Program-made: the position numbers and the translations under genes
Shown here: in pieces, positions 2,841 to 47,544 of the stretch
Layout: each line of letters opens with the position of its first letter
Position numbering within the stretch: the first letter of the stretch is position 1
Notes under the pieces: model-generated
Told to the model about the DNA's origin: nothing
Databases searched by the model: none
What the model saw: the letters and a program-made list of their open reading frames with translations, nothing else
Assembly (NCBI GenBank): GCA_041690355.1
Contig: JAWLHK010000012.1
Span: 62,001 to 120,151 of the forward strand
DNA length: 58,151 nucleotides
Origin: a bacterium
GTDB taxonomy: Bacteria > J088 > JAWLBW01
Reading direction: 5' to 3'

Positions 2841-2947
2841 ATTCCTGATTCCTGATTCTTAATTCCTGAGCCGGAAAGTACCGAGGGAAAACCTGGTCGG
2901 GCTTGTGGTTCTTGTTGGTCAAGAATCAGGAATCAGGTATCAGGAAT
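2841..2947. repeat. Inverted pair of GAATCAG heptamer arrays with inner RMAAGDRC motifs
   Basis: (TTCCTGA)n at 2841-2869, GAAAGTAC at 2874-2881, GTTCTTGT at 2908-2915, (TCAGGAA)n at 2919-2947. Confidence 0.9.
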
Positions 2948-2975
2948 GGGCCGCCGGCCCGGTATACTGATTCGC

Positions 2976-3425
2976 ATGCGCTTCCAAGCGGTATCGGAGT
3001 TCGCCTGCACGCCGGCGGCCCTGTGGGGTTTTCACGAACGCCCCGATGCGCTCGCGCTGCTCACGCCGAAGTGGCCGCCCGTGAAGGTGATTCAGCCGCC
3101 GGCGTCGCTGCACGTGGGCGCCGAGGCGATTCTCGAGCTGCATCCGGTTCCCGGCGTGCGCATCCGTTGGCATGCGCGACATACGGAGTACGATCCGCCG
3201 CACCGCTTCGTCGACGTGCAGCTTTCCGGTCCGTTCGCGAGCTGGCGCCACGAACACCGCATCGAACCGGCTCCCGGCGGCGCCCGCCTGATCGACACCG
3301 TGGAGTACGAGCCGCCCCTCGGGGTCCTGGGGAAGCTCGCGAACCCGCTGTTCATCCGGCCGCAGTTGAAGGCCATGTTCCGCTACCGCCATGCGGTGAC
3401 GCGGAGGCACGTGGAGCAGGCGTAG
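2976..3425 (+). CDS. SRPBCC/START-like family protein
   Basis: FHERPDALALLTP...FVDVQLSGPFASWRHEH...DTVEY...MFRYRH pattern. Confidence 0.85.
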   Translation: MRFQAVSEFACTPAALWGFHERPDALALLTPKWPPVKVIQPPASLHVGAEAILELHPVPGVRIRWHARHTEYDPPHRFVDVQLSGPFASWRHEHRIEPAPGGARLIDTVEYEPPLGVLGKLANPLFIRPQLKAMFRYRHAVTRRHVEQA

Positions 3426-3426
3426 A

Positions 3427-3459
3427 CTGAATTCCTGATTCCTGATTCTTGATTCCTGA
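3427..3459. repeat. CTGATTC heptamer array
   Basis: ctgaattcctgattcctgattcttgattcctga immediately after the SRPBCC stop. Confidence 0.9.
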
Positions 3460-3490
3460 GCAGTCTGTCCGGAATAGTTACAGCGCGTAA

Positions 3491-3580
3491 CCGTTCGGCC
3501 TGAGGAGCCGGGCCTTGGGGAACCGGAATTGAATTCGGCCGCTTCGTCTCGCAAGATCGTCGTCCCGGCGTCTCGAAGCC
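3491..3580. repeat. Second, partial copy of the 1161 REP-like element
   Basis: CCGTTCG(G/C)CCTGAGGAGCCGG-N53/54-CGGCGTCTCGAAG is shared with 1162-1248. Confidence 0.7.
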
Positions 3581-3656
3581 CCGGCACCCCGTGAGCACCG
3601 TGCTCGAGGCGATTGCTCCTGCTACGAGCCCGGCCGCACAAGCACTAAGGGCTTGC

Positions 3657-3830
3657 TCAAATATCCAGGCGCAGGCTTTCCTGTATGTCTTTCATAACTC
3701 CTCGGATATGATGAGTTACCTCAATGATTGTAGATTGCTCTTCTAAATTGATGAGTTGCGTAGCCGACGCTCTCAGAAGGTCCTGAACGGTAAAGCGGTC
3801 ACTTGTATTCGCGGAACACTTCGTTAAAAA
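3657..3830 (-). pseudogene. AT-rich 3' gene remnant with no start codon (57 codons)
   Basis: Open frame FLTKCSANTSDRFTVQDLLRASATQLINLEEQSTIIEVTHHIRGVMKDIQESLRLDI* begins exactly at the heptamer array edge. Base composition is visibly lower in GC than the flanks. Confidence 0.45.
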
Positions 3831-3853
3831 TTAAGAATCAGGAATCAGGAATC
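3831..3853. repeat. GAATCAG heptamer array
   Basis: ttaagaatcaggaatcaggaatc just upstream of tam. Confidence 0.85.
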
Positions 3854-3857
3854 TCAC

Positions 3858-4640
3858 GTGCCCTGGAACCCCTCGCAGTACCAACGCTTCCGCCACGAAC
3901 GCCGGCAACCGGCGGTCGATCTCATCGCGATGACCCGCGCCGAGCACCGGATGCGCGTGGCCGACCTCGGCTGCGGCCCCGGCGACGTTACGCTGCTGCT
4001 GCACGAGAAGCTGCACGCGCGCGAGACTGTCGGGTTCGACAGCTCGGCCGCCATGCTCGAACGCGCGCGCACCCTGGAGGCGCCGGGCCTGCGCTTCGCC
4101 GCCGCCGACATCGCAGATCTTCCGGAGGAGCACGGTTCTTTCGATCTGATTTTCTCCAACGCAGCGCTCCACTGGATCCCCGATCACCCTGCCCTACTTA
4201 GGCGACTCGCGAGTCGCCTCGCCCCCGGCGGACAGCTCGCCGTGCAGGTGCCCGCCAACGTGCACCGGCCCTCGCACACGGTCGCCGACGAGGTCGCCGC
4301 AGAGGAACCGTTCGCGTCTGCACTCGGCGGCTACCGCCATCCGCGCCATGTGCTGGAACCGGAAGCCTATGCGGAACTCCTGCACGAGCTCGGCTTCGCG
4401 GCGCAGCGGGTCGAGATGCGCATCTACGGCCACACGCTGGCGCACAGCGCCGACGTGGTGGAGTGGGTCAAGGGGTCGCTGCTCACGGATTACGAGGCGA
4501 AGCTGGAACCTGTGCTCTACGAGAAGTTCGTGGCCCGCTACCGCGCGCGGCTGCTGGAGCGGATCGGAGAGAGCGCGCCGTATTTCTTCACGTATCGGCG
4601 GCTGCTGCTCTGGGCGGCGCGCGCAAGCGCCGAGCGCTAA
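3858..4640 (+). CDS. tam: Trans-aconitate 2-methyltransferase-like SAM methyltransferase
   Basis: WNPSQYQRF...DLGCGPG...FSNAALHW...LAVQVPAN. Confidence 0.85.
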   Translation: MPWNPSQYQRFRHERRQPAVDLIAMTRAEHRMRVADLGCGPGDVTLLLHEKLHARETVGFDSSAAMLERARTLEAPGLRFAAADIADLPEEHGSFDLIFSNAALHWIPDHPALLRRLASRLAPGGQLAVQVPANVHRPSHTVADEVAAEEPFASALGGYRHPRHVLEPEAYAELLHELGFAAQRVEMRIYGHTLAHSADVVEWVKGSLLTDYEAKLEPVLYEKFVARYRARLLERIGESAPYFFTYRRLLLWAARASAER

Positions 4641-4816
4641 GCGCCAAGCGCCGATTCAACAAGGACAGGGCCCAGCGCCGAGCGCTAAGCGCCAAGCGCC
4701 AAGCGCCGATTCAGCAAGGACGCACAGGAGCATGTAAGGAAGGTCGGCATCATCGCCCGGTCGGAGCGTCGATAGCCCTTTCCGGCTCAGCGCTCAGTGC
4801 TTGGCGCTTGGCGCTC
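4626..4816. repeat. AGCGCYA heptamer arrays (tandem-duplicated left arm, inverted right arm)
   Basis: Arrays at 4626-4653, 4674-4708 and, inverted, 4787-4816. Motifs ACAAGGAC 4659-4666, GCAAGGAC 4714-4721, GCCCTTTC 4775-4782. Confidence 0.9.
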
Positions 4817-4826
4817 GAGCTTCGAC

Positions 4827-7049
4827 TCAGTCGACTAGTTCAAGCGGTACGTAGCGCGCCATGATCTTCTTGACCCCCGAGGGGAACTTCACGGTGAGCT
4901 TCGGGTTGTCGGGGGTGCCTTCGGCGTAGACAACGAGCCCCGTGCCGAAGGTCGGATGGCTCACCTTCGAGCCCTGCTTGAACTTGCCGACCGTCTTCTC
5001 GGTCTGCTGGAGCACCGGTTGCACCACGGAACGCACGCTCTGCGACGGCCGGCTCGGGGCCGCGAATTCCGGATCGTACTCGTAGTCCACATCGCGCCGC
5101 GCTGGCGGCCGCTCGAGCCACGCCGGCTTCGCCGGCTGGATATGTTCGACGAGCTCCTGCGGAATGTCGGCGAGGAACTGGCTGGGGTAGAACATCTCGT
5201 AATCGCCCCAGAGGCGGCGCCGCTTCGAGTGCGAAAGGTAGAGCCGCTTCTCGGCGCGCGTGATCCCCACGTAGCAGAGGCGTCGCTCTTCTTCCATCTG
5301 CTGCGGATCGCCCTGGCTGCGGCTGTGGGGGAAGATTTTCTCTTCCATGCCGACCAGGAAGACGACCGGATACTCGAGCCCCTTGGCCGAGTGCAGGGTC
5401 ATGAGCGTCAACTTGTCTTCGGACTCCCGCATGTCGTCGAGATCGGAGACGAGGGCCACTTGATCGAGGTACTGCGGCAGGCCGGCTTCGGGATTCCGCT
5501 CTTCGAACTCGCCCATGGACGAGAGCAGGGAACCGAGGTTTTCGAGCCGGCTGCGCGCTTCTTCGGTCGCTTCGGTTTCGAGCGCTTCTGCGTACCCCGT
5601 GCGCTTGAGGAGGAAGGTGGCGAACTCGCGCAGCCCGAGATTCGCCATCTCGGCGCGCGCGTCGTCGAGCACGGTGAGAAACTGGCGGATCTTGTTCGCC
5701 GCCGCGCCGCCGACGATCTTCTCGTCGACGCAGACGCGCGAGGCCGTGATCAGATCCACGTTGCGCTCGCGGGCACAGCCTTCGATCCGCTCGATGCTCG
5801 TCTTGCCGATCCCCTGCGTGAAGTTGCCGAAGACGCGGCGCAGGCTCATGATGTCGCGCTCGTTGACGAGAAAGCGCAGCAGGCTGAGCAGATCCTTGAT
5901 CTCCTTGCGGTCGTAGAACTTCATCCCCCCGATGACCTGGTAGGGAATGCGATTGCGCAGGAGAGCTTCTTCGAAGACGCGCGAGAGCGAGTTCATGCGG
6001 TACATGATCGCCATGTGGCGCAGGGCGTGACCGTGACGCTGCTCTTCGCGCAGCTTGCCGACAACCCAGTTCACCTCGTCGCGATCGTCTTCGGCCGTGT
6101 AGAGCATCAGCCGGTCGCCCGGCGGATTCTCGGTCCACAGCGTCTTCTCGATGCGGTCGCGGTTCTTCTGCACGACGTTCTGCGCGGCCGAGAGAATGTT
6201 CTTCGTCGAGCGGTAGTTCTGCTCGAGCTTGATCGTCACGGCGTGGGGAAAGTCGCGATTGAAGTCGAGGATGTTGCGGATATCCGCCCCGCGCCAGCTG
6301 TAGATGCTCTGGTCTTCATCGCCGACGACGCAGAGGTTGCCGTGCTTGCCGGCCAGCATCTTCACGATGAGGTACTGGATGCGGTTCGTGTCCTGGTACT
6401 CATCCACGAGCAGATAGCGCAGGCGCTCCTGGTACATCTGGAGCACGTCGGGCGCCTCGCGGAACAGGCGCAGCGTGTAGAGCAGCAGGTCGCCGAAGTC
6501 GAGGGCGTTGCAGCGCGCGAGCTCTTCCTGATAGAGACGGTAGACCTCGCTCGCCTTCTCGTGGAACATGCTGAGCGTGCGTCCGGCGACGTCTTCGGGG
6601 AAAAGTCCGTCGTTCTTGGCCTTGTCGATGAGCGAGGCGACGGCACGCGGCTGATACCGGTCGGTATCGAGGTCGAGGTTCGTGATGACCGTCTTGAGCA
6701 GGTCGAGCTGCTCCTTGTCGTCGTAGATGACGAAGTTCGGGTCGCGGCCGATGGCGTGGATGTGGCTGCGCAGGATCTTCACGCAGGCCGAGTGGAACGT
6801 GCTGACCCAGAGCCCCTCGCCACCGCTGCCGAGCAGGTTGTGCACGCGTTCGCGCATCTCGCCAGCGGCCTTGTTTGTGAACGTCACGGCCAGAATTTCG
6901 GAGGGATGGGCCAGACGTTCGTGCACGATGTGGGCGATGCGGTGGGTGAGCACCCGGGTCTTGCCCGAGCCGGCGCCGGCCAGGAGCAGCACCGGCCCGT
7001 CGGTCGCGAGAACGGCTTCGCGCTGGCGGGGATTGAGTCGTGAAAGCAT
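4827..7049 (-). CDS. pcrA: ATP-dependent DNA helicase UvrD/PcrA
   Basis: AGAGSGKT, VDEYQDTN, VGDEDQSIY, QNYRST, TLHSAKGLE, EEERRLCYVGITRA and a Tudor-like C-terminus. Confidence 0.97.
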   Translation of the reverse strand: MLSRLNPRQREAVLATDGPVLLLAGAGSGKTRVLTHRIAHIVHERLAHPSEILAVTFTNKAAGEMRERVHNLLGSGGEGLWVSTFHSACVKILRSHIHAIGRDPNFVIYDDKEQLDLLKTVITNLDLDTDRYQPRAVASLIDKAKNDGLFPEDVAGRTLSMFHEKASEVYRLYQEELARCNALDFGDLLLYTLRLFREAPDVLQMYQERLRYLLVDEYQDTNRIQYLIVKMLAGKHGNLCVVGDEDQSIYSWRGADIRNILDFNRDFPHAVTIKLEQNYRSTKNILSAAQNVVQKNRDRIEKTLWTENPPGDRLMLYTAEDDRDEVNWVVGKLREEQRHGHALRHMAIMYRMNSLSRVFEEALLRNRIPYQVIGGMKFYDRKEIKDLLSLLRFLVNERDIMSLRRVFGNFTQGIGKTSIERIEGCARERNVDLITASRVCVDEKIVGGAAANKIRQFLTVLDDARAEMANLGLREFATFLLKRTGYAEALETEATEEARSRLENLGSLLSSMGEFEERNPEAGLPQYLDQVALVSDLDDMRESEDKLTLMTLHSAKGLEYPVVFLVGMEEKIFPHSRSQGDPQQMEEERRLCYVGITRAEKRLYLSHSKRRRLWGDYEMFYPSQFLADIPQELVEHIQPAKPAWLERPPARRDVDYEYDPEFAAPSRPSQSVRSVVQPVLQQTEKTVGKFKQGSKVSHPTFGTGLVVYAEGTPDNPKLTVKFPSGVKKIMARYVPLELVD

Positions 7050-7149
7050 GTCGGAGCCTAAACGTTTCAGTCTATCAGACCGGGTTGAGACGATGCGAAC
7101 GCATGGTTCGAGGTGATTGCGGCGGGCACGCGGGTGCTAAACTGACTAA

Positions 7150-8067
7150 ATGGCAAATTTGAGCGAATCAGATCCTCTGTTCCTGACGACGGGCGAAGTG
7201 GCCGAAATGCTGGATGCGCATCCGTCGAGCGTGAAGCGCTGGAGCGGGCGGCAGGAGCTGGCCTATGTGACGACGGCGGGCGGGCATCGCCGGTTCACCG
7301 TCGATGCCGTTCGGACGTTCAGCGAAGCCTCCGGGGTTCCGTTCGCGTTCGCCGTGCTGGAAGAGGATCTGGAGCCGTATCTGAAGGCGCTTCGCGCCCC
7401 CGCCTCGGGGCTCGACGCGCAGGTGCACGACCTGCTCTTCGGCTGGCTGTCGGCCGGCATGACCGGTCGGCTCGAATGGTCGCTTTCGCATCTGCACCGC
7501 ACGCGCTACACGCTCGGCGGGCTGTTCGATCGCATCGTCATGCCGCTGCTCACGCGCATCGGCGGCGCCTGGGAGCACGGCGAGCTCTCGGTCGCGCACG
7601 AGCACTTCATGAGCCAGCAGCTTTTCGAGGGGCTCTACCGGCTGCGGCCTCAGGTCGGCGCGCACGGCGGCACGCGGCCGATCGCGATCTGCGCGGGGGC
7701 CGAAAACACCAACCATGTCTTCGGCCTCATGATGAGCCGGCTGATTCTCGAGCATCTGGGCTGGGCGGTGATCTACCTCGGCGCGGCGGTTCCCAATGAG
7801 GATCTTGGGGCCTTCATCCTCGAGCGCGAGACGCAGATGGTCGTCATCTCGTTCAGTTATCCGCAGTCGGTCAACGACGTGCAGCGCACGTTGCGCACAC
7901 TGGCGACGCTGGCGCAGGTCAAGCGCTTCTCGCTCGCCCTGGGCGGCAAGCCGGCCGAAAAGGCGGTTCTTCCGGCAGCGCTTTCTCACGGCGAGATCTT
8001 CCAGTCGATGGCGGCGTTCGAAACGTGGGCGCTGGCGTCGAAGCTAGGACTGGCGGGGGGCTCCTGA
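7150..8067 (+). CDS. HTH + cobalamin-binding transcriptional regulator (CarH/LitR-like architecture)
   Basis: MerR/excisionase-like HTH (LTTGEVAEML...TAGGHRRF), W...EH motif (GAWEHGELSVAHEH), HxxG...YLGAAVP B12-binding domain. Confidence 0.85.
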   Translation: MANLSESDPLFLTTGEVAEMLDAHPSSVKRWSGRQELAYVTTAGGHRRFTVDAVRTFSEASGVPFAFAVLEEDLEPYLKALRAPASGLDAQVHDLLFGWLSAGMTGRLEWSLSHLHRTRYTLGGLFDRIVMPLLTRIGGAWEHGELSVAHEHFMSQQLFEGLYRLRPQVGAHGGTRPIAICAGAENTNHVFGLMMSRLILEHLGWAVIYLGAAVPNEDLGAFILERETQMVVISFSYPQSVNDVQRTLRTLATLAQVKRFSLALGGKPAEKAVLPAALSHGEIFQSMAAFETWALASKLGLAGGS

Positions 8068-8088
8068 CGGTTTCTCCCCGTTTCCGCC

Positions 8089-8121: not shown

Positions 8122-8131
8122 CAGGGCCCCG

Positions 8132-8967: not shown

Positions 8968-9345
8968 ATGCTGCGTGAACTTCTCGTCGTGGCGGGCGGC
9001 GGTGCGGCCGGGGCCGTGGCGCGATATTTGGTCAGCGCCGCCGTGCAGTCGCGTACGGGGCCTGGATTTCCGTGGGGAACGCTCGTCGTGAATCTTTCCG
9101 GCGCGTTTCTGCTCGGACTGCTCGCCGAGGCGGCAACGCGCATGCCGGCACTCACGCCCGAGATGCGGCTTCTGCTCGCCACCGGCTTTCTCGGCGCCTT
9201 CACGACCTTCTCGACGCTCTCGCTCGAGAGCCTTGCCCTTCTGCGGAGCGGAGCCTTCGGAGCCTTCGCTGCAAACACGCTCGGTGGTCTCGCCCTCGGA
9301 CTCGCCGCCTGCTGGCTCGGCATGCTGGCCGCGCGCGCCCTTTAG
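8968..9345 (+). CDS. crcB: Fluoride efflux channel Fluc/CrcB
   Basis: GGAAGAVARY, FPWGTLVVN, TGFLGAFTTFST. Confidence 0.96.
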   Translation: MLRELLVVAGGGAAGAVARYLVSAAVQSRTGPGFPWGTLVVNLSGAFLLGLLAEAATRMPALTPEMRLLLATGFLGAFTTFSTLSLESLALLRSGAFGAFAANTLGGLALGLAACWLGMLAARAL

Positions 9346-9349
9346 AAGA

Positions 9350-9393
9350 ATGGCAGATTGCGGTTGGCAGATGGCAGATCCTTCGGAAAGGGC
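9350..9393. repeat. TGGCAGA heptamer array plus GAAAGGGC motif
   Basis: atggcagattgcggttggcagatggcaga followed by GAAAGGGC at 9386-9393. Confidence 0.75.
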
Positions 9394-12442: not shown

Positions 12443-12500
12443 TGTCCCCCTAGTCCCCCCAGTCCCCCTCTCCCCCACTCCCCCACTCCTCGCCCAGGAC
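12443..12500. repeat. TCCCCCAC-type octamer array
   Basis: tgtccccctagtccccccagtccccctctcccccactcccccactcc followed by the motif variant CCCAGGAC. Confidence 0.7.
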
Positions 12501-13495: not shown

Positions 13496-13499
13496 GGTC

Positions 13500-13638
13500 A
13501 AGCGCCAAGCACTGAGCGCCAAGCGCCAACCGGCAAGGACCGGATCTCTGCAATGCCCGAAGGCCGTTGCCCACAAAGCGAGTACCTCTTGCACAAGGTA
13601 CTTGCGGCAAATCGTCAATCGTCAATCGTCAATCGTCA
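13500..13638. repeat. Chimeric element: AGCGCCA array / motif ... motif / TCGTCAA array
   Basis: Array 13500-13528, GCAAGGAC 13533-13540, GTACTTGC 13598-13605, array 13610-13638. Confidence 0.9.
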
Positions 13639-33350: not shown

Positions 33351-33363
33351 GTCACTTCAGAGA

Positions 33364-33513
33364 AAGCGCTGAGCGCCAAGCACCAAGCACTGAGAATGCA
33401 ACCGACTCGGATTTGTGCCCTTTCCGGTAACTCGTCACCCGTCACTCGTAACTCGTAACTTCGTGTGACTCGTCACTGGAAAAATCGTCAATCGTAAATC
33501 GTAAATCGTCAAT
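33364..33513. repeat. Compound element of three heptamer classes inside the his operon
   Basis: AGCRCYA array 33364-33394, GCCCTTTC 33417-33424, TCGT(A/C)AC array 33427-33477, TCGT(A/C)AA array 33483-33513. Confidence 0.9.
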
Positions 33514-39761: not shown

Positions 39762-39864
39762 TGCCCCAAGCCCGACGCCCAATGCCCGATCGGCAGGAGC
39801 CCGGCCAGGTCGCAGCTAAACCGTTGGTCTTACTCAGGAATTAAGAATCAGGAATCAGGAATTC
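39762..39864. repeat. NGCCC(C/G/A)A array ... GAATCAG array element
   Basis: tgcccca-agcccga-cgcccaa-tgcccga at 39762-39789 and tcaggaattaagaatcaggaatcaggaattc at 39834-39864. Confidence 0.8.
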
Positions 39865-39872
39865 CGCCCTCG

Positions 39873-40118
39873 CTACTGGGCCCTTGCCCCCACGTGATCG
39901 ACCAGCCCCTGACGCCCCTCATGGGCGGCGCAGCTGGCGCAGCAGAAAATCGTGTCGCCGTCTTCGACCCCGTGACCGATGACCCGGCAGCCGCAGTGGG
40001 CGCACGCCGGAGCCAGGGCGTGAATGGCGCATTCGAAACTGTCGAAGGTGTGGGTCGTCTCGCCCTGGATGACCTGGAATGCTTTGTCGTATTCGTTGTG
40101 GCAGACTTCGCACTGCAT
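39873..40118 (-). CDS. Small Cys/His-rich metal-binding (metallothionein-like) protein, 81 aa
   Basis: CEVC-N-YDK, FDSFECAIH, CAHCGCRVIGHG, FCCASCA. Confidence 0.85.
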   Translation of the reverse strand: MQCEVCHNEYDKAFQVIQGETTHTFDSFECAIHALAPACAHCGCRVIGHGVEDGDTIFCCASCAAHEGRQGLVDHVGARAQ

Positions 40119-40259
40119 ACGCTCGTTCTCCGGCAGAGAGGTTCTCGGCCATTGTCGGGCCCTGGCGCGAGGCACGCGAGAGCGGCGCCCCGGATCCCGG
40201 CAGGGCGGCCCGGCGGTCGCTTCGTGCATGGATGCCGCCGGGGCGGGTACACTTTGTCC

Positions 40260-42275
40260 ATGCTGAAACTCATTCTCCCCATCGCCGTGCTGGCGCTCGC
40301 CGCCTGTACGACCGAACCCGCGCCCGCGGCCCCCGCCTGCCGCGCCGACCTCGCCGACGCCGTCGACGGCCTGGATGCCGCCTTCGACGCCACGGGCTCC
40401 TGCGCCTCGGCGCTCACGCTCTCACTCTGGGTGGCCGTCGAAAAGGACGGCGGTTCGATCGTCTGGGTGCCCGCGGCCGAAGCCCCGCTCGCCATCGAGG
40501 GGAGCTGGGGGGCAGACGGGGACGCCTTCGTGCGCGACGTGACCCTGCGTAATACGGGGTCGGCAGCCGCGACCGTCCACGGCCTGCTCTGGACGGGCAC
40601 CCTGACGGGCGGCTCGCTGCAGGCCGACCGCATGCTGCACAACGGCTACCAGAGCTGGAACTACATGGGCATCGAAACGATCCCCGCGGACAATGGGGAA
40701 CTGTTTGCGCCCACCGACGGGGCAGAAGTGTCGCTGCAGACGAGCGGCGGCCAGAACGAATTGACGCTCGAGGAGCTGCCCGGCCTGTCGTGGTGGTGGA
40801 CGGCCGTGGGCGCGGCTTCGGACCAGGCCCTGATCGCCGGCGCCGACGGGGGCACGGTGTGGAAAACGTACTTCCTCGCCGAACGGGACGAAAGCGGCGA
40901 CGTCACCTTCCAGATCGCCATGGGGCTGACGGGAGATCCGGTTGCGCTCGACGCCGGTTCCGCCAGGTCTCTCGACGGCCTCTACCTGCGCTGGGACGAC
41001 ATCGGGAAGGGGCTCGACGCCTATGCCGAAACGGTGGCGGCGAAACATCCCCCCACGTTCGAGAAGGGGGCGCCGCTCGCCGGCTGGGGCTCGTGGAATC
41101 TCTACTATACGGATATCTCGGCCCCCACGCTGCGCGAAGACCTCGCCTGGCTCACGAGCGAACTCGACGGATTCGGACTCGATACCTTTCTACTCGACGA
41201 CGGCTACCTCAATCATTGGGGGAGCTGGTCGGCCTCGGTCACGTTCGGCACGTCGCTCGCGAACTGGGCCGGCGAGGTCAAGGCGGCCGGCATGAACCCG
41301 GCGATCTGGCTGGCGCCGATGTACGTCGACGTCAAGGATCCGGTCGTGACCGCGCACCCCGAGTGGTTCGTGCGCCGCGAAGACGGCTCGCTGCGCACCT
41401 TCAATAACTTCGGCCCCGACCACGCCGCCCTCGACATCACGCATCCCGACGCGCGCGCCTTCTTCCTCGATCAGCTCACGGCGCTGTGGGACGCGGGCTA
41501 CCGCATTTTCAAGATCGACTTTCTCTTCGGCGCCGCCATCGAGGGGCAGCGGCAGACAACCGTCACGACGCTCGAATCCTATCAGTTGTGGATGAAGGCC
41601 ATCCGCGACGCCGTGCCCGAAGCGCACCTGATCGGCTGCGGCGCCCCCATGCTCCCCTCGGTGGGCTGGGTCGACTCGATGCGCACGGGTCCCGACATCG
41701 CCTTCGTCGTGCTTCCCGACAACCGCTATCCCTTTCTCGCCGCGCAGGCCCGGCACACCGCCTACCGCCCATATACGGACAAGTGGTGGATTCTCGACGC
41801 CGACGTCGTGCTGCTGCGCGGGACGAACATCAGCGACGCCGAAGCGTGGACCCACGTCGTCTCGGCCATGCTGAGCGGGGGGAACTATCTGCTCGGAGAC
41901 GCGCGCCAGTCGACCGAGGCGCGCCTGGCCATGGCGCTGCGCACCGGGTTCGAGCAGCTGGCCGACGGCGTCGCGGCACGCCCGGTGGACTGGATGGCGA
42001 CGGTGGATCCGAAGATTTTCGGCACGCCGCCCGAAGACCTGCAGGGGAAAACCGCGTTGCCCCACGTCTGGGAAAAGACGGATCGCAACGGCGTGCGCTG
42101 GACCGCCGTGTACGGCTGGGAGCCGGGCGGCGAGTTCGCGGTGCGGCTCGATTCGACGGCGGTGGAAGTGATTCCGCCCGCGGATCTGTCCGGTACCGCC
42201 ACGTTCGTGAAGGCACCCGCGGGGCCGATCGCCGTCGACCGCCACGCCGTCCGCCTCTTCCGCAGCCGGCCTTGA
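40260..42275 (+). CDS. Lipoprotein, alpha-galactosidase family (GH36/GH27-like)
   Basis: Lipobox LAAC; GWGSWNLYY, LDDGY, IWLAP, FKIDF, MRTGPD. Confidence 0.85.
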   Translation: MLKLILPIAVLALAACTTEPAPAAPACRADLADAVDGLDAAFDATGSCASALTLSLWVAVEKDGGSIVWVPAAEAPLAIEGSWGADGDAFVRDVTLRNTGSAAATVHGLLWTGTLTGGSLQADRMLHNGYQSWNYMGIETIPADNGELFAPTDGAEVSLQTSGGQNELTLEELPGLSWWWTAVGAASDQALIAGADGGTVWKTYFLAERDESGDVTFQIAMGLTGDPVALDAGSARSLDGLYLRWDDIGKGLDAYAETVAAKHPPTFEKGAPLAGWGSWNLYYTDISAPTLREDLAWLTSELDGFGLDTFLLDDGYLNHWGSWSASVTFGTSLANWAGEVKAAGMNPAIWLAPMYVDVKDPVVTAHPEWFVRREDGSLRTFNNFGPDHAALDITHPDARAFFLDQLTALWDAGYRIFKIDFLFGAAIEGQRQTTVTTLESYQLWMKAIRDAVPEAHLIGCGAPMLPSVGWVDSMRTGPDIAFVVLPDNRYPFLAAQARHTAYRPYTDKWWILDADVVLLRGTNISDAEAWTHVVSAMLSGGNYLLGDARQSTEARLAMALRTGFEQLADGVAARPVDWMATVDPKIFGTPPEDLQGKTALPHVWEKTDRNGVRWTAVYGWEPGGEFAVRLDSTAVEVIPPADLSGTATFVKAPAGPIAVDRHAVRLFRSRP

Positions 42276-42289
42276 GTCCTCAGCCCTGC

Positions 42290-42329
42290 GAATCAGGAAT
42301 CGAGAATCAGGAATCAGGAATTCAGAATT
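42290..42329. repeat. GAATCAG heptamer array
   Basis: gaatcaggaatcgagaatcaggaatcaggaattcagaatt. Confidence 0.9.
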
Positions 42330-42374
42330 GATATAATCCCCGCTTTCACCCCGGGGCGCGCAGAGGAACGAACG

Positions 42375-42941: not shown

Positions 42942-42950
42942 GGATTCAAG

Positions 42951-43637
42951 GTGCACTCTGAACCGCGGCGCGATCGCCTCGGCCGCCTGAGCCCCGGCGG
43001 CGAGGTGGCGCTCGTCATGGCGCTCACCTATGCCGTCATCTTCGGTACGGCCGCCGCCGGGGTCTTCACCTGGTTCGCCTACGCCATCTTTCTCTACCTG
43101 CCGGTGGGGGTCGCCTGGCTGCGTAACGAAGATTTCGCGCGCTACGGCCTGCTCGTCGCCGATCGCCGGCGTACGGTGCGCGAGGCAATCGGCAACGCGC
43201 TGGTCATTTTTCCGCTCTTCACGCTGGGATACGCCATCGCGCTGCGGTGGGTTCCCCAGCTCCCCCCGCTCCGGTTCGGCTTCGACGCCGACGTCGGCCA
43301 GGTGCTGCTTTTTGCCCTGCTGCAGGTGGTCGTGGTCGGCCTCGCCGAAGAGTACTTCTACCGCGGATACCTGCAGGAGCGCCTCGATCGCATCTGGCCC
43401 CCGCGCTGGCGCCTGCTGGGCGCCGTAGTGGGCCCCGGCTGGATCGTACAGTCGGTGCTCTTCGCCGTGGGCCATCTGGGGCAGGGTCTCAACCCCGGGC
43501 GCCTCGCCACGTTCTTTCCCGGGCTCTGGTTCGGGTGGGTCAAGGCCCGCACGGGCAATGTTTATGCGGGCATCGCGCTGCACGCTTTGGCGAACCTGCT
43601 GATCGCCTGGCTGCAGGGCCAGGCGGTCGGCGGCTGA
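42951..43637 (+). CDS. CPBP family intramembrane glutamic protease (myxosortase-like)
   Basis: EEYFYRG, FAVGH, LATFFPGLWFGW, HALAN. Confidence 0.88.
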   Translation: MHSEPRRDRLGRLSPGGEVALVMALTYAVIFGTAAAGVFTWFAYAIFLYLPVGVAWLRNEDFARYGLLVADRRRTVREAIGNALVIFPLFTLGYAIALRWVPQLPPLRFGFDADVGQVLLFALLQVVVVGLAEEYFYRGYLQERLDRIWPPRWRLLGAVVGPGWIVQSVLFAVGHLGQGLNPGRLATFFPGLWFGWVKARTGNVYAGIALHALANLLIAWLQGQAVGG

Positions 43638-43844
43638 CCCCCGCGGCGGCCCGTTTTTCTGGCTGCCTGCCGGGCGTTCGGGGGCCGGGGAGAAAAAGAG
43701 ACCCCGATTCCGTAAAGAAATCAGCCAATTGGCGGGGGTGTGAGTTGCGGCACAGTAATCATTCGGCTAGAATGGTTACGTCTCTCAGAGGCCTGTCCTC
43801 CGAGGGGCAGGGGTGTCTAACTTTCCGCAGGAGCAGCAGTCGCT

Positions 43845-44339
43845 ATGGCCGGGACCCAGTTGGTCATGTACGAAGAGGAGTTTCAGAAGATAAACTCCGT
43901 CATCGAGCGTCTGGCGCGCGAGGCCAATGCGAAGTTGATCTTTCTGGTCGACAAGAACGGCCAGCTGATCGCCAACTGCGGCGAGACCGAAAACATCGAC
44001 ACGACCAGCCTCGCCAGCCTGACCGCCGGCAACATCGCCGCCACGGGCGGCCTGGCCAAGCTGATCGGTGAAAAGGAATTTACGGTCCTTTTTCATGAGG
44101 GCGAAAAGGACAACATCCACATCTCTCTGATTGGCGCCCGGGTCATTCTGGTCGTCATCTTCGACGGACGTTCGTCCCTGGGGCTGATTCGACTGCGTGT
44201 CAAAAAGGCCGGCGAAGAGCTGCAGGGAATTTTCGATGCCCTGATGAAGAAAGTCGAGGCCGACGCCGGGGGTGGCGGGCTCGATTCGCCGTTTGCCGAG
44301 ATCACAGACGAAGACATCGACAACCTTTTCAGTGATTGA
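43845..44339 (+). CDS. mglB: Roadblock/LC7 GTPase-activating protein MglB
   Basis: [48 protein letters not shown]. Confidence 0.96.
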
Positions 44340-44350
44340 ATCCGGACCGT

Positions 44351-44938
44351 ATGTCGTTCATCAACTACTCATCCCGCGAGATCAACTGCAAGATCGTCTA
44401 CTACGGCCCGGGGCTGTGCGGTAAGACGACGAACCTGCAGTACATTTACGGCAAGACGTCGCCCGACGCCAAGGGAAAGATGATCTCGCTGGCGACCGAG
44501 ACCGAGCGCACGCTCTTTTTCGACTTCCTCCCGTTGTCGCTGGGGGCGATTCGCGGCTTCAAGACGCGTTTCCACCTGTACACGGTGCCGGGGCAGGTGT
44601 TTTACGACGCCTCGCGAAAGCTGATTCTCAAGGGGGTCGACGGCGTCGTCTTCGTGGCCGACAGCCAGAACGAGCGCATGGACGCCAACATCGAGAGCCT
44701 CGAGAACCTGCGCGTGAACCTCAAGGAGCAGGGCTACGAGCTCGACAAGATTCCCTACGTCGTGCAGTACAACAAGCGCGACCTCCCGAACGCCGCCTCG
44801 ATGGAAGAGCTGCGCAAGGCGCTCAACCCGACGAACGTGCCTGATTTCGAGGCCGTCGCCCCGAAGGGGGTCGGCGTATTCGATACGCTGAAGGCAGTCA
44901 GCCGGCTGGTGCTGCTCGAGCTCAAACAGGGCAAGTAA
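44351..44938 (+). CDS. mglA: Small Ras-like GTPase MglA
   Basis: [42 protein letters not shown]. Confidence 0.98.
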
Positions 44939-44963
44939 TCGTCCGGCCAACGGATTTTCAACA

Positions 44964-44990
44964 GGGGCTTCTTCGGGAGCCCCTTTTTTT
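44964..44990 (+). terminator. mglBA terminator
   Basis: GGGGCTTC-TTCG-GGAGCCCC followed by a T-run. Confidence 0.85.
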
Positions 44991-45085
44991 GTCTTTGGCC
45001 GGATTCGCGGGACGTGGTAAGATTTGGCGGACCGCAGAGCGGCCGCTCGGCGATCCATACCCCTTACTCATAACGAGGAATTCCT

Positions 45086-45241
45086 ATGAAGAAGCTTCTT
45101 GGTTCGGTGCTCCTGCTGAGCGCCCTGGCTTTCGTCCCCGCCTGCTCCGACGAAGATCCGCTGTGCACGGCCTGCAAGGACGCCTGCGAAGGCGACAGCA
45201 CCTGCGTCGCCGCTTGCGAAGCGCAGGACTACTGCCAGTAA
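45086..45241 (+). CDS. 51-aa Cys-rich lipoprotein (absent from the ORF track)
   Basis: RBS GAGGA at 45075-45079; MKKLLGSVLLLSALAFVPACSDEDPLCTACKDACEGDSTCVAACEAQDYCQ*; terminator follows. Confidence 0.85.
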   Translation: MKKLLGSVLLLSALAFVPACSDEDPLCTACKDACEGDSTCVAACEAQDYCQ

Positions 45242-45259
45242 GCAGCTGCGCCTCGGCGC

Positions 45260-45296
45260 AAAAAAGCCCCCGGGAGACCGGGGGCTTTTTCTTTTT
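45260..45296. terminator. Bidirectional terminator
   Basis: AAAAAGCCCCCGG-GAGA-CCGGGGGCTTTTT between convergent genes. Confidence 0.85.
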
Positions 45297-45323
45297 CGAG
45301 CAGGTGCAGTTGCGGGAGCGCAA

Positions 45324-45746
45324 TCAGTTCTGTTTGGCGCCGTCGGCGATCCACTTGCGCACGGCCGCGACGTCGTCGGCGTGCAGCGGGCTCCCCTGGG
45401 GCATCCGCTGCCCGTAGGTGTGCGTCCCGGCAATCTTCATGTAGAGCCAGCTCTTGTCCGGATTCCCCGGTTCAACCAGGCTCAGGGTCTTGGCCTGGGT
45501 CGATTTGGCGAGCACTTCCTGGTAGTTCTCGTCGGGCGTGCCGTCGAGCTTGAGGCCCGCGCGCGGGGCCGAACCGGCGTGGCAGCCCGAAAAAGCGCAC
45601 GTTTTCGCGAGCAGTTCGCCGTTGATCGACGCAAACGTCGGGTCAAGGCCGATGGGGTCGGCGGTCGCGGCGGGTTCATCTTCGGTTCCGCAGGCCACCA
45701 GGGTGACGGCGCAAAGCAGGCTCAGGAACAGCTTGGACAGGTTCAT
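45324..45746 (-). CDS. Lipoprotein with cytochrome c-like domain (CX4CH)
   Basis: Lipobox LVAC; CAFSGCH, VEPGNPDKSWLY, RMP, WIADGA. Alternative start at 45755. Confidence 0.8.
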   Translation of the reverse strand: MNLSKLFLSLLCAVTLVACGTEDEPAATADPIGLDPTFASINGELLAKTCAFSGCHAGSAPRAGLKLDGTPDENYQEVLAKSTQAKTLSLVEPGNPDKSWLYMKIAGTHTYGQRMPQGSPLHADDVAAVRKWIADGAKQN

Positions 45747-45846
45747 AATCTTCATCCGTCTGAAAAAATTCTGAGGGGCGTCGGCCCCTGCACTGGAGTC
45801 CCGGTATTTTACCCGGTGAGCGCACCGCCATGCCACCAACGGGGGA

Positions 45847-46028
45847 ATTGACGATTTACAATTTACGATTGACGAATTTCGAACAGGACTCTGACAGGTT
45901 CTTGCTTCGTTGGCGCTCGGCGCTCAGCGCTCGGCGCTTTCCTTGATTGACAATGCGGCCTGGACCGATAGACGATGAACACTTGCGAGCTGAGACTGAC
46001 TTGTGACTGAAGACTGGTGACTGAAGAC
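45847..46028. repeat. Compound TTGACGA / TGGCGCT / GACTGAA array element
   Basis: Array 45847-45876, AACAGGAC 45882-45889, GTTCTTGC 45898-45905, array 45910-45938, array about 46005-46028. Confidence 0.85.
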
Positions 46029-47039
46029 ATGCTTGCCATGCGCCTCCACGCCCCCGCCCCCATCGAGACCCGCCCGTTGCGGGCCGAAGAGGTGCCCATA
46101 CCCACGCCCGAGGTGGGCGAAGCGCTGATCCGCGTGCGCGCCTGCGGCATCTGCCGCACCGACCTGCATGTGATCGAAGGCGATCTCCCCTTCGGCGGGC
46201 GGCCCGTCACGCCCGGCCACCAGATCGTGGGGACGGTAGAGCGTCTCGGCCCCGGCGTCGACGCCTTCGAGCGCGGCGCAAGAGTCGGCATCGCATGGCT
46301 GCAGGGCACCTGCGGCGTGTGCGCCTTCTGCCGCCGCGGAGATGAAAACCTCTGCGCGCAGCCGCGCTTCACCGGATACCATCGCGACGGTGGTTTTGCG
46401 GAATATGTGACCGCGCCGGCCGACTGGCTCTACCCCATCCCCGACGTCTTCAGCGACGCCGAGGCGACCCCCCTGCTCTGCGCGGGGATCATCGGCTACC
46501 GCGCCCTGAAAAGGAGCGAAGTGCCCGACGGGGGGCGGCTGCTGCTCCTGGGGTTCGGCTCGTCGGCCCACATCACGCTTCAGATCGCGCGCCACCGCGG
46601 CTGCGAAGTGTATGTCGCGACCCGGGGAGAAAAGCACCGGGCGTTCGCCCGCGAGCTCGGCGCGGTCTGGGTCGGCGACGCGCAGGACGAGCCGCCGGTC
46701 AAGGTCGATAGCGCCATCGTCTTCGCGCCGGCGGGAGAACTGGTTCCTGTCGCGATGCGGGCGGTCGAACGCGGCGGCACGGTCGCCTGCGCCGGCATCT
46801 ACATGACCGACATTCCGGCCATGGACTATGAGCGCCATCTCTTCTACGAGAAGAATCTGCGCTCGGTCACGGCCAACACGCGGCGCGACGGCGAAGAGCT
46901 TTTGCGGATTGCGGCCGAAATTCCGATCCGCTCGCGCGTCACGGTCTTCCCCCTGCGCGAAGCCAATGAAGCCCTGCTCCAGTTGAAACGGGACGGCCTG
47001 AACGGCACGGGGGTCCTGCAAGTGACGAGTGACGAGTGA
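46029..47039 (+). CDS. Zinc-dependent alcohol dehydrogenase family protein
   Basis: CGICRTDLH, PGHQ, CGVCAFC...ENLC, PLLCAG, GFGSSAH. Confidence 0.93.
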   Translation: MLAMRLHAPAPIETRPLRAEEVPIPTPEVGEALIRVRACGICRTDLHVIEGDLPFGGRPVTPGHQIVGTVERLGPGVDAFERGARVGIAWLQGTCGVCAFCRRGDENLCAQPRFTGYHRDGGFAEYVTAPADWLYPIPDVFSDAEATPLLCAGIIGYRALKRSEVPDGGRLLLLGFGSSAHITLQIARHRGCEVYVATRGEKHRAFARELGAVWVGDAQDEPPVKVDSAIVFAPAGELVPVAMRAVERGGTVACAGIYMTDIPAMDYERHLFYEKNLRSVTANTRRDGEELLRIAAEIPIRSRVTVFPLREANEALLQLKRDGLNGTGVLQVTSDE

Positions 47040-47125
47040 CGAATTCCAGCAAGGACCTATGAATTGCTGGCTCAATGCGGGAGCGATGTCAGTGCTTGGT
47101 GCTTGGCGCTTGGCGCTCAGCGCTT
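47021..47125. repeat. GTGACGA array / motif ... TGGCGCT array element
   Basis: Array 47021-47043 contains the ADH stop; GCAAGGAC 47049-47056; array 47089-47125. Confidence 0.88.
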
Positions 47126-47209
47126 CCTGAAGCATGCCTTGAGAACCGTTCGTCTCGAGCCGACGGCGCGAGCAGAGCGAGCGCGACGGCGAGAGGGCCG
47201 GCATGATCG

Positions 47210-47449
47210 CTACCCTCCCCTCACGATGCGCAGAAGCCACCCGACGAGGTTCACGAGCAAGGTCAGCGCGACGCTCAGCAGAAGCATGCTGACCAGCGGG
47301 AAATAGACGCGCGACCGTTCTCCCTGCCAGCGGATGTCGCCCGGCAGCTTCCCGAACCAGGCGAACAGCCCGGGCGCCTTCCACAGAATAAGCGCGGCGA
47401 CGACCGCCAGGACGGCAACGAGGAAGAGGATTTTCACCGAAGCGGGCAT
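47210..47449 (-). CDS. DUF2905 family small membrane protein
   Basis: FGKLPGDI...VYFPLVSMLLLSVAL. Confidence 0.9.
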   Translation of the reverse strand: MPASVKILFLVAVLAVVAALILWKAPGLFAWFGKLPGDIRWQGERSRVYFPLVSMLLLSVALTLLVNLVGWLLRIVRGG

Positions 47450-47498
47450 ATCGGATCATTGTACGCGGGAAGGAAAACGAACGTCCCGCATGCACCAG

Positions 47499-47544
47499 GC
47501 CCTTGCTTGATCCCCCCTCTCCCACTCTCCCACTCCCCCACTCC
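47499..47544. repeat. Octamer array (TCYCCCAC) with adjacent GCCCTTGC motif
   Basis: gcccttgc at 47499-47506, then tcccccctctcccactctcccactcccccactcc. Confidence 0.75.

Follow-up and report, generated by a model that had tools for sequence, protein, structure and literature searches.

Intergenic heptamer arrays with a common flanking motif form polar, paired modules and are associated with PF05635 four-helix-bundle genes

In the window, the 58,151-nucleotide stretch of bacterial DNA analysed here, short tandem arrays of dissimilar heptamers and octamers lie between genes, and the same 8-mer, RMAAGDRC, lies close to many of their ends. Are these arrays simple repeats beside a chance motif, or parts of one system, and if so, of which kind?

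A polar module common to different heptamer families

The original prediction placed twelve RMAAGDRC motifs beside arrays in the window. All 12 of the 12 coordinates are exact matches on the strands stated, and the heptamer and octamer arrays at these sites were recovered by Tandem Repeats Finder (TRF) as well as by reading the sequence (Table 1). Judged by the direction in which motifs point from their arrays, two near-matches that it also listed (12493 and 39793) are on the wrong side or wrongly oriented and look fortuitous, and a unit it gave as NGCCCVA was not seen among the window arrays. Over the whole window, enrichment of RMAAGDRC is only mild, with 44 matches against 33.9 ± 5.4 in shuffled sequence, a count reached by 5 of 100 window shuffles. 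Nine motifs are found 0-8 nt off TRF-defined array ends and read away from them, where about 0.14 are expected.

The 4.64 Mb of the genome outside the window provided an independent test set. There, RMAAGDRC occurs within 40 nt in 356 of 2024 array flanks, and in 291 of these it stands at offsets 2-7 and points away from the array; the density of the motif over the genome, 0.36 per kb on each strand, predicts ~4.4. In an unbiased count outside the window, the top 6-mer in array flanks is GCAAGG (180 observed, 12.8 expected). The association of the motif with array ends is not due to chance, and one flanking motif is indeed common to arrays of differing heptamers, as had been claimed.

The motif is present at 315 of 808 intergenic arrays, and on both sides in only one of these 315. 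Families are strictly oriented towards it (ACGATTG 46:0, ATTCCTG 43:0, ACGAGTG 30:1, AAGCGCC 29:1), and variant units keep fixed positions, ATTCtTG and AGCGCtG each being the second unit counted from the motif. Unit number per array spans 2 to 14, with a mode at 4-4.9 units (401 of 992 period-7 rows; 88 at 5 and 33 at 6) and a length peak at ~4.5 units. Array and motif are a single conserved polar module, which belongs to a genome-wide repeat system whatever the heptamer sequence.

Nearby arrays are oriented '><' in 119 cases and '<>' in 9. Head-to-head arrays pair around GCAAGGRC-N12/13-GYCCTTGC, the gap being 12-13 nt in 28 of 51 motif pairs. Arms do not combine at random (A-T 43, A-G 27, A-A 0): AGCGCCA preferentially partners KTGACGA, and the commonest composite has the form (KTGACGA)n-GCAAGGRC-N12/13-GYCCTTGC-(TGGCGCT)n. 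Composites of ~110-160 nt recur on different contigs with 80-90% identity, and similarity between copies does not reach into neighbouring genes. The outer array edge lies at most 15 nt from a gene in 157 of 431 cases and the motif side in 7 of 431, with gene borders taken from a simple ORF caller that mis-called hisB and hisD. The arrays are not independent simple repeats.

Table 1 Arrays, motifs and composites in the window. G001 is a genome of the same family.
Position	Strand	Feature	Context
2840..2881	+	Module pointing right: CTGATTC-type array x4.3 (2840-2869), linker, motif GAAAGTAC (2874-2881)	With 2908..2947, head-to-head composite (2840-2947), core 26 nt, between acyl-CoA synthetase and SRPBCC genes
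2908..2947	-	Facing module: motif ACAAGAAC (2908-2915, minus), GAATCAG array x4.1 (2919-2947)	
3431..3853	.	Inverted CTGATTC/GAATCAG pair (3431-3459, 3835-3853); no motif	Encloses 375 nt of lower-GC DNA; tested ORF without Pfam match
4619..4721	+	Two tandem AGCGCCA-type modules, motif-ended: ACAAGGAC (4659), GCAAGGAC (4714)	Methyltransferase gene takes its stop codon from the first array
4775..4815	-	Facing module: motif GAAAGGGC (4775-4782, minus), TGGCGCT-type array (~4788-4815, by eye)	Adjoins uvrD/pcrA stop codon
8089..8121	+	GACTGAR array x4.7, without motif	Convergent genes on either side
9350..9393	+	Module: ATGGCAG-type array x4.3, motif GAAAGGGC (9386-9393)	Directly after crcB
12444..12489	-	C-rich octamer array, CCCCCACT x4.2, without convincing motif	
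13499..13638	.	Composite: AGCGCCA array, motif GCAAGGAC (13533), 57-nt core, motif GCAAGTAC (13598, minus), AATCGTC array x4.1 (13610-13638)	
33372..33513	.	Composite: AGCRCCA array, motif GAAAGGGC (33417-33424, minus), GTAACTC x4.9, AAATCGT x4.6	his operon, between hisB stop (33514) and hisH start (33350); in G001 57 nt only, without arrays
39834..39862	-	GAATCAG-type array x4.1	Between rpmE and GH36-like gene
42290..42321	-	GAATCAG array x4.6	Upstream of dcd
45846..46028	.	Cluster: TTTACGA/TTGACGA-type array (45846-45879), motif GCAAGAAC (45898-45905, minus), GGCGCTC array (45912-45938), GACTGAA array (45998-46028)	
47021..47125	.	Composite: GTGACGA x3.1, motif GCAAGGAC (47049), 32-nt core, TGGCGCT-type array (47094-47125)	Follows ADH gene; at the orthologous place in G001, a different heptamer-type array of ~25 units
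47499..47544	-	Module: motif GCAAGGGC (47499-47506, minus), C-rich octamer array (47513-47544)	Upstream of DUF2905, adjoins tRNA-Gln

Four-helix-bundle genes between arrays

The suggestion in the original prediction to search for enclosed four-helix-bundle genes was borne out: all 10 PF05635 matches above cut-off in the genome have heptamer or octamer arrays within 400 nt. TRF arrays lie on both sides of 7 of these genes and on one side of 3, with two extra second arrays recognised by eye. Of all 3841 predicted genes, by comparison, only 108 are flanked upstream and downstream by arrays no more than 200 nt away. Matches of the protein include TIGR02436 and the five-chain structure PDB 2GSC (E 4e-24), and its match to NCBIfam DivGenRetAVD (E 1e-8) is below that model's cut-off. 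Each divergent paralogue has its own repeat unit, while three 94-100% identical copies have GGACGTC in common. A GCAAGGRC-type motif stands beside an arm in four gene-bearing units (T, O, W and C families), a tandem of ~6 motif copies adjoins one of the genes, and the outer array edges mark where similarity between copies of the D-family unit begins or ends.

The same arrangement is found elsewhere. Among 29 loci from 29 unrelated genomes, arrays are on both sides at 27 and on one side at 2, both of which are cut by a contig end; no locus is without arrays. Same-period array pairs at PF05635 loci are reverse complements within 1 mismatch in 17 of 24 cases, compared with 10 of 388 control pairs drawn from different loci. 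In one genome, G030, two-sided arrays with locus-specific units occur at 6 of 7 four-helix-bundle loci, and at 4 of these the two units are clearly reverse complements. A gene between inverted heptad arrays occurs as a unit across bacteria. At the level of whole genomes, the link between PF05635 count and array density is loose: G021 has 19 mostly partial matches and 0 period-7 arrays per 100 kb, G008 has 9 matches and 1.2 arrays (densities of both from 62-80-kb samples), and G013 has no match, yet 5.0 arrays per 100 kb.

Origin of the gene-less composites

We consider it probable, with a fair margin for doubt, that the arrays are arms of a composite repeat family whose gene-less composites are MITE-like derivatives of units carrying a PF05635 gene; the arrays of the window would most likely be such derivatives. 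An arm consists of ~4.5 heptads (or octads), a short linker and the motif GCAAGGRC, and two arms face each other across a short core. Larger units have the same architecture, with a gene of PF05635, the family of the 23S rRNA intervening-sequence protein S23p and of the retroelement protein Avd, in the core. A pentameric four-helix-bundle ring may recognise its own heptad array, with about one heptad per subunit, and inverted arms may pair in RNA or DNA, like the stem of the 23S intervening sequence. The elements would be copied, by whatever route, into new intergenic sites, and their ending at gene borders would be what makes them tolerable to the host. To our knowledge, PF05635 proteins have no nuclease, recombinase or polymerase activity, which leaves the proposed mobility without an enzyme. 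The original prediction took array and motif for a site that an enzyme encoded elsewhere may act on; no other protein is found repeatedly within such units, and we know of no catalytic activity for this one.

Several observations speak against this reading, as does the loose genome-level link. The abundant AGCGCCA (119 arrays) and GTGACGA (87) families have no gene-bearing copy in this assembly, a tblastn search (E<=1) of the gene-less composites gave no remnants of a four-helix-bundle gene, and a clear GCAAGGRC motif is absent from 6 of the 10 gene-bearing units. In G111, 0 of 17 unselected arrays match the units flanking seven examined four-helix-bundle genes. Moreover, array-to-array folding is weak (mean z -1.1), and heterologous arms (A with T or G) are incapable of pairing. 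We saw no duplicated target sites, no site that is empty at nucleotide resolution and no polymorphism between strains.

The composites could instead be host regulatory or architectural sites, bound by IHF/HU or, in the manner of ribbon-helix-helix repressors, by a global DNA-binding protein with a dimer on each heptad, with GCAAGGRC-N12/13-GYCCTTGC as a dimer operator and the four-helix-bundle genes as one regulated target class. The spacing of the inverted motifs, about two helical turns, the inner positions without RNA-stem covariation and the ~6 tandem motif copies beside one gene fit such a role, and heptad-wise binding has a precedent in the omega repressor of inc18 plasmids, of which one dimer is bound per heptad. 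Paired tandem-repeat sites of Geobacter metallireducens have also been read as IHF/HU sites (PMC2700814). However, the sites are equally frequent at 5' (158) and 3' (153) gene ends, occur also within an operon, show no orientation preference relative to transcription and are absent from a sister-family genome at orthologous places. In addition, at least 10 unrelated heptamers would imply equally many regulators, and we regard this explanation as unlikely.

It is also rather improbable that the modules are REP/BIME-like and moved by the sole IS200/IS605-type Y1 transposase (RAYT), with the four-helix-bundle genes as passengers or preferred insertion sites. Exactly one PF01797 gene is present in the genome (C3:284649-284990, 150-aa ORF, HVHLL motif), single copy being typical of RAYTs, and head-to-head pairs around a short spacer look like REP doublets. 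Yet this gene has no flanking heptamer array or motif, and the modules are tandem arrays, unlike palindromes of 20-40 bp tagged with GTAG or CGTC. The stem at the centre of the composites has no more than moderate stability (mean dG -11.7, z -2.45), with no consistent covariation at stem positions 6-7 among motif pairs, and in a comparison that covered PF05635 genes and arrays the link between the two holds in the 29 other genomes. High intergenic copy number, head-to-head doublets, mosaic arms and gene-less derivatives of a coding parent are nevertheless features in common with REP/BIME, RAYT and MITE systems; here the coding parent would hold a four-helix-bundle gene rather than a transposase.

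The original prediction had the arrays delimit small accessory units, as ends of mobile gene cassettes that recombine at array and motif. The 42290 array is a direct repeat of the 39834 array, and both therefore bracket the GH36-like gene, which is missing from G001 at the corresponding position; inverted arrays also flank some genes, such as ndk. Against this, genes with arrays on both sides are few, core genes are among them, the neighbours of arrays include hisB/hisH, rpmE, dcd, uvrD/pcrA and lexA, and the motif is directed into intergenic space, never towards a gene. The repeated, conserved unit is the intergenic composite itself (array-motif-core-motif-array), with similarity ending at the arrays. 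We therefore hold the cassette model to be largely refuted here and highly improbable: the polar module, the genome-wide system and the enclosed four-helix-bundle genes stand, and the accessory gene units do not.

Replication slippage at heptamers has been suggested to explain long heptanucleotide repeats of numerous bacteria. As sole explanation here, with the motif incidental, it is likewise largely refuted and has very little likelihood: heptanucleotides are the most abundant long simple-sequence repeat (SSR) class in many genomes (Mrazek 2007, via PMC4679880 and PMC4692102) and copy number varies somewhat, but slippage predicts length decay instead of a sharp mode, and leaves unexplained the strict polarity, the fixed variant units, the preferred arm combinations, the dispersed composites and the limited set of families.

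Relation to known repeats and elements

No publication was found in the literature that ties heptamer arrays to PF05635 four-helix-bundle genes, and PF05635 elements may account for the origin of bacterial heptamer repeats. Heptanucleotide SSRs, cyanobacterial STRR and the TAACTGA repeats of Beggiatoaceae, Cyanobacteria and Bacteroidetes, described as of unknown function (PMC4679880), are likewise tandem heptamers that are over-represented between genes and patchily distributed among phyla. They are treated as single-unit repeats, whereas here many families are joined by motif and pairing rules; most TAACTGA arrays share one orientation and closely precede start codons, unlike the arrays here, which show no bias relative to genes.

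The GGGAATC arrays of Xanthomonas are also intergenic, mostly of ~4 units, and form 70-75 convergent opposite-strand pairs with positions conserved between two species (PMC4692102). They have one unit type and were studied as G-quadruplexes; that article describes no common flanking motif and no four-helix-bundle link (XCC0516, S23 and four-helix each occur 0 times). In Geobacter metallireducens, multicopy intergenic site classes are mostly opposite-strand pairs, some with 3-5 tandem repeats; the consensus MTYCTGA resembles the TTCCTGA unit found here, and sites also lie between operon genes (proBA), as here (PMC2700814). The portion of that article available mentions no enclosed gene family or common motif.

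Avd is a basic, pentameric partner of nucleic acid and reverse transcriptase. The PF05635 protein has a fold homologous to this four-helix bundle of diversity-generating retroelements (PMC10053308), although the contig that carries the sole reverse transcriptase gene here (C18:61429-61923) has no four-helix-bundle genes.

The architecture also resembles that of S23p-encoding intervening sequences, small elements that carry a PF05635 ORF with tandem heptamers beside it and have inverted repeats at their termini. The 23S intervening sequence of Coxiella comprises 428 nt and includes an S23p ORF; RNase III cuts its 28-bp terminal stem, and it contains three tandem heptamers, a number that differs among strains (PMC4990558). 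In contrast to these insertions in 23S rRNA, the elements described here lie between protein-coding genes, their arms are entire heptad arrays, gene-less copies number in the hundreds, and the inner motif GCAAGGRC ties different heptamer families together. The Coxiella intervening sequence has itself been viewed as selfish (PMC4990558).

Polar heptad modules and their facing pairs

Tandem Repeats Finder (TRF) recovers heptamer or octamer arrays at every site named in the original prediction, and all 12 of its motif positions are exact matches to RMAAGDRC on the strand given (12/12), a consensus that does cover 24 octamers. That prediction had made enrichment of the motif at arrays elsewhere in the genome its own refutation test, and the enrichment was found: outside the window, the motif lies at offsets 2-7 in 291 flanks, against ~4.4 expected, and within 40 nt of an array in 356 of 2024 flanks. 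In a motif-blind count, GCAAGG ranks first among the 6-mers at array flanks (180 observed vs 12.8 expected). Over the full window the motif is hardly more frequent than in shuffles (44 matches vs 33.9 ± 5.4), but nine matches, with ~0.14 expected, read away from a TRF-defined array end at a distance of 0-8 nt. Hence, the significance of the motif resides in its position relative to the arrays, not in its abundance.

The source genome (G000) is a 4.64-Mb draft of 42 contigs with 65.6% GC; the window is positions 62001-120151 of its contig C12. Arrays of at least three copies number 769 for period 7, 178 for period 6 and 94 for period 8, and few unit families make up most of the period-7 arrays (among them AATCGTC, 127; ACGAGTG, 93; AATCAGG, 84; AAGCGCC, 64). 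The genome is ~90% coding, and 820 of the 1039 merged arrays are intergenic, distributed over 490 intergenic regions. As in the heptanucleotide repeats classed as long SSRs or STRRs, the heptamers stand head to tail, are over-represented and are mainly intergenic.

The motif is borne by 315 of 808 intergenic arrays, on both sides in a single case, and polarity towards it is fixed family by family (46:0, 43:0, 30:1, 29:1, 18:0 and 14:0). The linkers are characteristic, as in TTTGCCG-GCAAGG and CTGAGCCG-GCAAGG. In addition, variant units occupy fixed positions (ATTCtTG and AGCGCtG second from the motif, TTTACGA farther out), and array length has a sharp mode at 4-4.9 units. It follows that the arrays were copied from master modules of ~45 nt that have a heptad periodicity within them, and did not grow independently as microsatellites. 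Slippage has been proposed for over-represented heptamers (Mrazek 2007, as summarised in the accessible text of PMC4679880, itself on TAACTGA repeats); here, local and independent slippage at each site is contradicted by the fixed variants, the ~4.5-unit mode, the polar motif and the dispersal of whole composites.

These composites consist of two facing arms across a short core. Neighbouring arrays stand head to head in 119 cases and in the opposite arrangement in 9 (36 and 2, respectively, inside one intergenic region), and 28 of 51 motif pairs are separated by 12-13 nt, giving GCAAGGRC-N12/13-GYCCTTGC. Core types recur (e.g. CTTGRAACACTTC), and entire composites of 110-160 nt are repeated across contigs with 80-90% identity. 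Arm pairing is non-random: AGCGCCA is paired with TTGACGA in 43 cases, with GTGACGA in 27 and with itself in none, and TTGACGA with itself in 11. Some of the counts in this analysis are inflated by kinship among copies. The motif is common to the seemingly unrelated heptamers because these form the left and right arms of a single family of composite dispersed repeats. Folding of the composite centre is moderate (mean dG -11.7, z -2.45 vs mononucleotide shuffles), with motif positions 6-7 frequently unpaired between the two motifs, and the array-to-array span is without notable folding (z -1.1).

Heptamer composites appear to break the genome assembly, and several of the top composite matches sit at contig ends (Table). 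A second dispersed repeat, CCGTTCGTCYCGAGCTGACGG...CGACAGCGAGRG, is present in 138 copies at up to 3 mismatches, often in inverted pairs with a unit of ~130 nt. A heptamer array is found within 120 nt of 96 of these copies, which are typically placed just inside a module.

Four-helix-bundle genes in the core position

Among the inverted array pairs listed as enclosing 250-6000 nt, one TTGACGA pair surrounds a 122-aa ORF matching TIGR02436, "four helix bundle protein". Genes of this type were among those that the original prediction suggested looking for between arrays, and all 10 PF05635 genes of the genome (10/10) have arrays within 400 nt. These are the 10 matches above cut-off in a profile search of the whole genome; none lies in the window, where the composites are gene-less. 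By TRF, arrays flank seven of the genes on both sides and three on one side, and at two of the latter a second array can be recognised on reading the sequence. By comparison, two-sided arrays within 200 nt were counted at 108 of the 3841 predicted genes. Protein matches include TIGR02436 (E 1e-35 and 6.5e-24) and PDB 2GSC (E 4e-24).

The arrays flanking these genes are inverted and of the same family. The divergent paralogues are 22-70% identical and each has its own unit (GGACGTC, CGCTGGG, a G-rich octamer, AGTCGTA/GACTGAA, GAATCAG, AGATGGC-type, TTGACGA or AATGGTC), GGACGTC being common to three copies that are 94-100% identical. Thus, for 8 of the 10 most frequent unit families there is one member that carries the gene: in the T (TTGACGA), D (GGACGTC), C, W, M, O, GACTGAR and AATGGTC families, a four-helix-bundle gene stands between arrays of the family itself. 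The AGCGCCA and GTGACGA families, which provide major arms, have no gene-bearing member in this genome. A GCAAGGRC-type motif lies between arm and gene in four gene-bearing units, one of which has six tandem copies; the motif may serve as an inner boundary or be recognised by a host factor. When the three GGACGTC units are aligned, similarity starts or stops at the outer array edges, and the ends of this D-family unit showed no target-site duplications. A tblastn search for four-helix-bundle remnants gave nothing convincing.

The four-helix-bundle gene occupies the core of units with this architecture across bacteria as well. PF05635 is present in 58 of the 151 genomes in the sample, which with few exceptions belong to different families. 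At one locus per genome in 29 genomes other than G000, short-period arrays, mostly of period 7, lie within 350 nt on both sides in 27 of the 29 loci; the other two have one-sided arrays and are cut by a contig end, so that no locus is array-free (0/29). The units on the two sides are reverse complements, with at most one mismatch, in 17 of 24 same-period pairs, compared with 10 of 388 cross-locus pairs. In the sampled genome G030, six of seven four-helix-bundle loci have two-sided arrays with locus-specific units, which are clear reverse complements in four, and one unselected array is identical to a gene-flanking unit. In G111, array pairs are found at four of seven such loci, and 0 of 17 unselected arrays matched.

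At the level of whole genomes, the link between PF05635 and arrays is loose. In samples of 50-197 kb, except for G000, which was taken whole and had been picked for its arrays, period-7 arrays per 100 kb in PF05635-positive genomes amount to 16.6 (G000), 14.1 (G111), 11.5 (G030), 5.9 (G125), 3.6 (G001), 1.2 (G008) and 0 (G021). The PF05635-negative genomes give 5.0 (G013, 28% GC), 1.2 (G024) and 0 (G007, G023, G022, G002 and G003). The module pattern, with 36 matches in G000, gave single matches at about chance level in 21 genome and 25 metagenome contigs, a set from which near relatives are possibly excluded; several of those contigs show unrelated TTGACGA arrays. The paired motif gave one chance-level match across 30 relatives. 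Multi-family heptamer arrays, including TTGACGA/TTTACGA and often in inverted pairs around short cores, also occur in public and metagenome contigs (Table).

Known systems and a possible mechanism

S23p intervening-sequence elements resemble the gene-bearing units in having a PF05635/TIGR02436 ORF inside the element and terminal inverted repeats, which are here inverted arrays. In the accessible text of PMC4990558, the Coxiella 23S intervening sequence comprises an S23p ORF and a terminal stem that RNase III cleaves, and carries three tandem heptamers of variable number. In G000, the flanks of the 10 four-helix-bundle genes look, on reading by eye, like protein-gene or intergenic DNA. MITEs are similar in that, the AGCGCCA and GTGACGA families excepted, the ends are common to a longer coding element of the same genome; the coding parent here encodes a four-helix-bundle protein only. 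REP/BIME elements differ, a REP being a 20-40-bp imperfect palindrome with a GTAG/CGTC tetranucleotide, whereas the module is a tandem array plus GCAAGGRC, and the central stem is here weak to moderate, without covariation. Unlike in Avd-containing diversity-generating retroelements, no reverse transcriptase gene is adjacent, and the sole PF00078 match is on a contig without four-helix-bundle genes (Table). A RAYT origin was rejected: the flanks of the single PF01797 gene have neither period-7/-8 arrays nor the motif. The flanks of this IS200/IS605-type Y1 transposase gene (Table) hold GC-rich inverted repeats, e.g. GGCCTGCAGGGCCGG.

Among published repeats, Xanthomonas has GGGAATC arrays in 70-75 convergent pairs, the accessible text of PMC4692102 making no mention of a four-helix-bundle protein, and the paired tandem-repeat sites of Geobacter metallireducens are interpreted as global-regulator sites in that of PMC2700814. 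PF05635 proteins resemble Avd, and 2GSC is a four-helix-bundle pentamer (accessible text of PMC10053308). No published link between PF05635 genes and genome-wide heptamer arrays was found in a search of part of the openly available literature.

Gene-less composites probably arose, in a MITE-like manner, from gene-bearing units that lost the core. The pentameric ring (five chains in 2GSC) would bind its own array, a modal length of 4-5 units being consistent with about one heptad per subunit. Same-family inverted arms would pair, as in intervening sequences, and the elements would be copied by some route, the reverse transcriptase and Y1 transposase of G000 not being linked to the arrays. Overall, we tentatively propose, as a reading somewhat short of probable, that PF05635 proteins are sequence-specific partners of small, pan-bacterial mobile elements ending in inverted heptad arrays, each paralogue reading its own heptamer with about one heptad per subunit, and that gene-less copies are the source of the intergenic heptamer repeats known from many phyla, such as the cyanobacterial STRRs, Xanthomonas GGGAATC, Beggiatoaceae TAACTGA and the Geobacter paired sites. 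Over-represented heptamer repeats have been noted in bacteria for decades, and we know of no explanation of their origin or function, nor of any role for the widespread four-helix-bundle "23S rRNA intervening-sequence protein" family. Linking the two gives each a testable explanation: a cognate repeat for the protein and a parent element for the arrays.

Position among genes

The arrays had been thought to delimit accessory gene units. Their neighbours in the window include lexA-region genes, uvrD/pcrA, crcB, rpmE, dcd, ADH and DUF2905 genes, the repeated unit is the intergenic composite, and one composite interrupts the his operon, at a hisB-hisH junction that in the same-family genome G001, syntenic with the window region, is 57 nt long and array-free. 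The cassette reading is unsupported because of these core-gene neighbours, the his-operon site and the G001 comparison; the way in which module orientation alternates from gene to gene is no guide to a choice between it and other models. At other places, G001 carries different heptamer arrays of its own, one of them with ~25 units following the orthologous ADH gene, and a 160-kb sample of it contains four period-7 arrays, none with the motif. Period-7 arrays were absent from samples of two same-phylum genomes. Hence, the elements are specific to the lineage, lie between genes and are tolerated at the borders of genes. The GH36-like gene of the window is bracketed by two direct GAATCAG arrays; in the syntenic G001 contig the gene is missing at this place, and 730 nt of unrelated sequence separate rpmE from dcd.

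With gene borders taken from crude ORF calls, the outer edge of the array comes within 15 nt of a gene, usually at the stop codon, in 157 of 431 cases, and the motif side does so in 7 of 431. Arrays adjoin 158 gene 5' ends and 153 gene 3' ends, and their orientation is unbiased relative to transcription (66 co-directional and 92 anti-directional between tandem genes). A role in supplying stops in all three frames was rejected, as forward TGA occurs in the top families and not in others, and TAA in some reverse units. Intrinsic termination is contradicted by the lack of a T-run after the central stem, the lack of orientation bias and the composite within the his operon. Promoters were dismissed, since -35/-10 spacing judged by eye in the outward sequences gave no consistent fit and 3'-end arrays are as common as 5'-end ones. 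Composites do supply stop codons to genes and occur inside operons; with the assembly breaks, annotation and expression studies should therefore account for them.

Table. Positions of the features discussed (C, contigs of G000; L, public contigs)
Feature	Contig	Positions	Remarks
Composite at contig end	C18	25-502	example; mutual identity of such composites 96-100%
Composite at contig end	C9	1-217
Composite at contig end	C7	238117-238196
Second dispersed repeat	window	47140-47200
Second dispersed repeat	C1	291468-291600	example
Iterated motif	C23	56490-56620	~6x GYTCTTGYC, period ~10-15 nt, 3' of one four-helix-bundle gene; precedes octamer array
PF05635 genes	C2, C5, C7, C20, C23, C26
PF00078 match	C18	61429-61923
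Y1 transposase gene	C3	284649-284990	150 aa, HVHLL motif, single copy
his-operon composite	window	33351-33513	between hisB and hisH
GH36-like gene	window	39834-42321	including the two bracketing arrays
Roadblock/LC7 and small Ras/Arf-like GTPase genes	window	43845-44938	MglB/MglA-type pair
crcB	window	8968-9345
Fluoride riboswitch	window	56222-56294	minus strand
CLC-type channel gene	window	54457-56181	downstream of the riboswitch
Array-bearing public contigs	L034, L037, L033/L062, L030, L028, L050, L056, L063, L064		labels: Chloroflexaceae, Chloroflexia, Planctomycetaceae, Acidobacteriota, Chitinophagaceae

A search of the window against Rfam at the gathering threshold gave no match at the arrays, the only matches being tRNA and a fluoride riboswitch, which lies upstream of a CLC-type channel gene, crcB being elsewhere in the window. 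The Roadblock/LC7 and Ras/Arf-like proteins share 93% and 97% identity, respectively, with the corresponding G001 proteins, which far exceeds the values for the genes around them.
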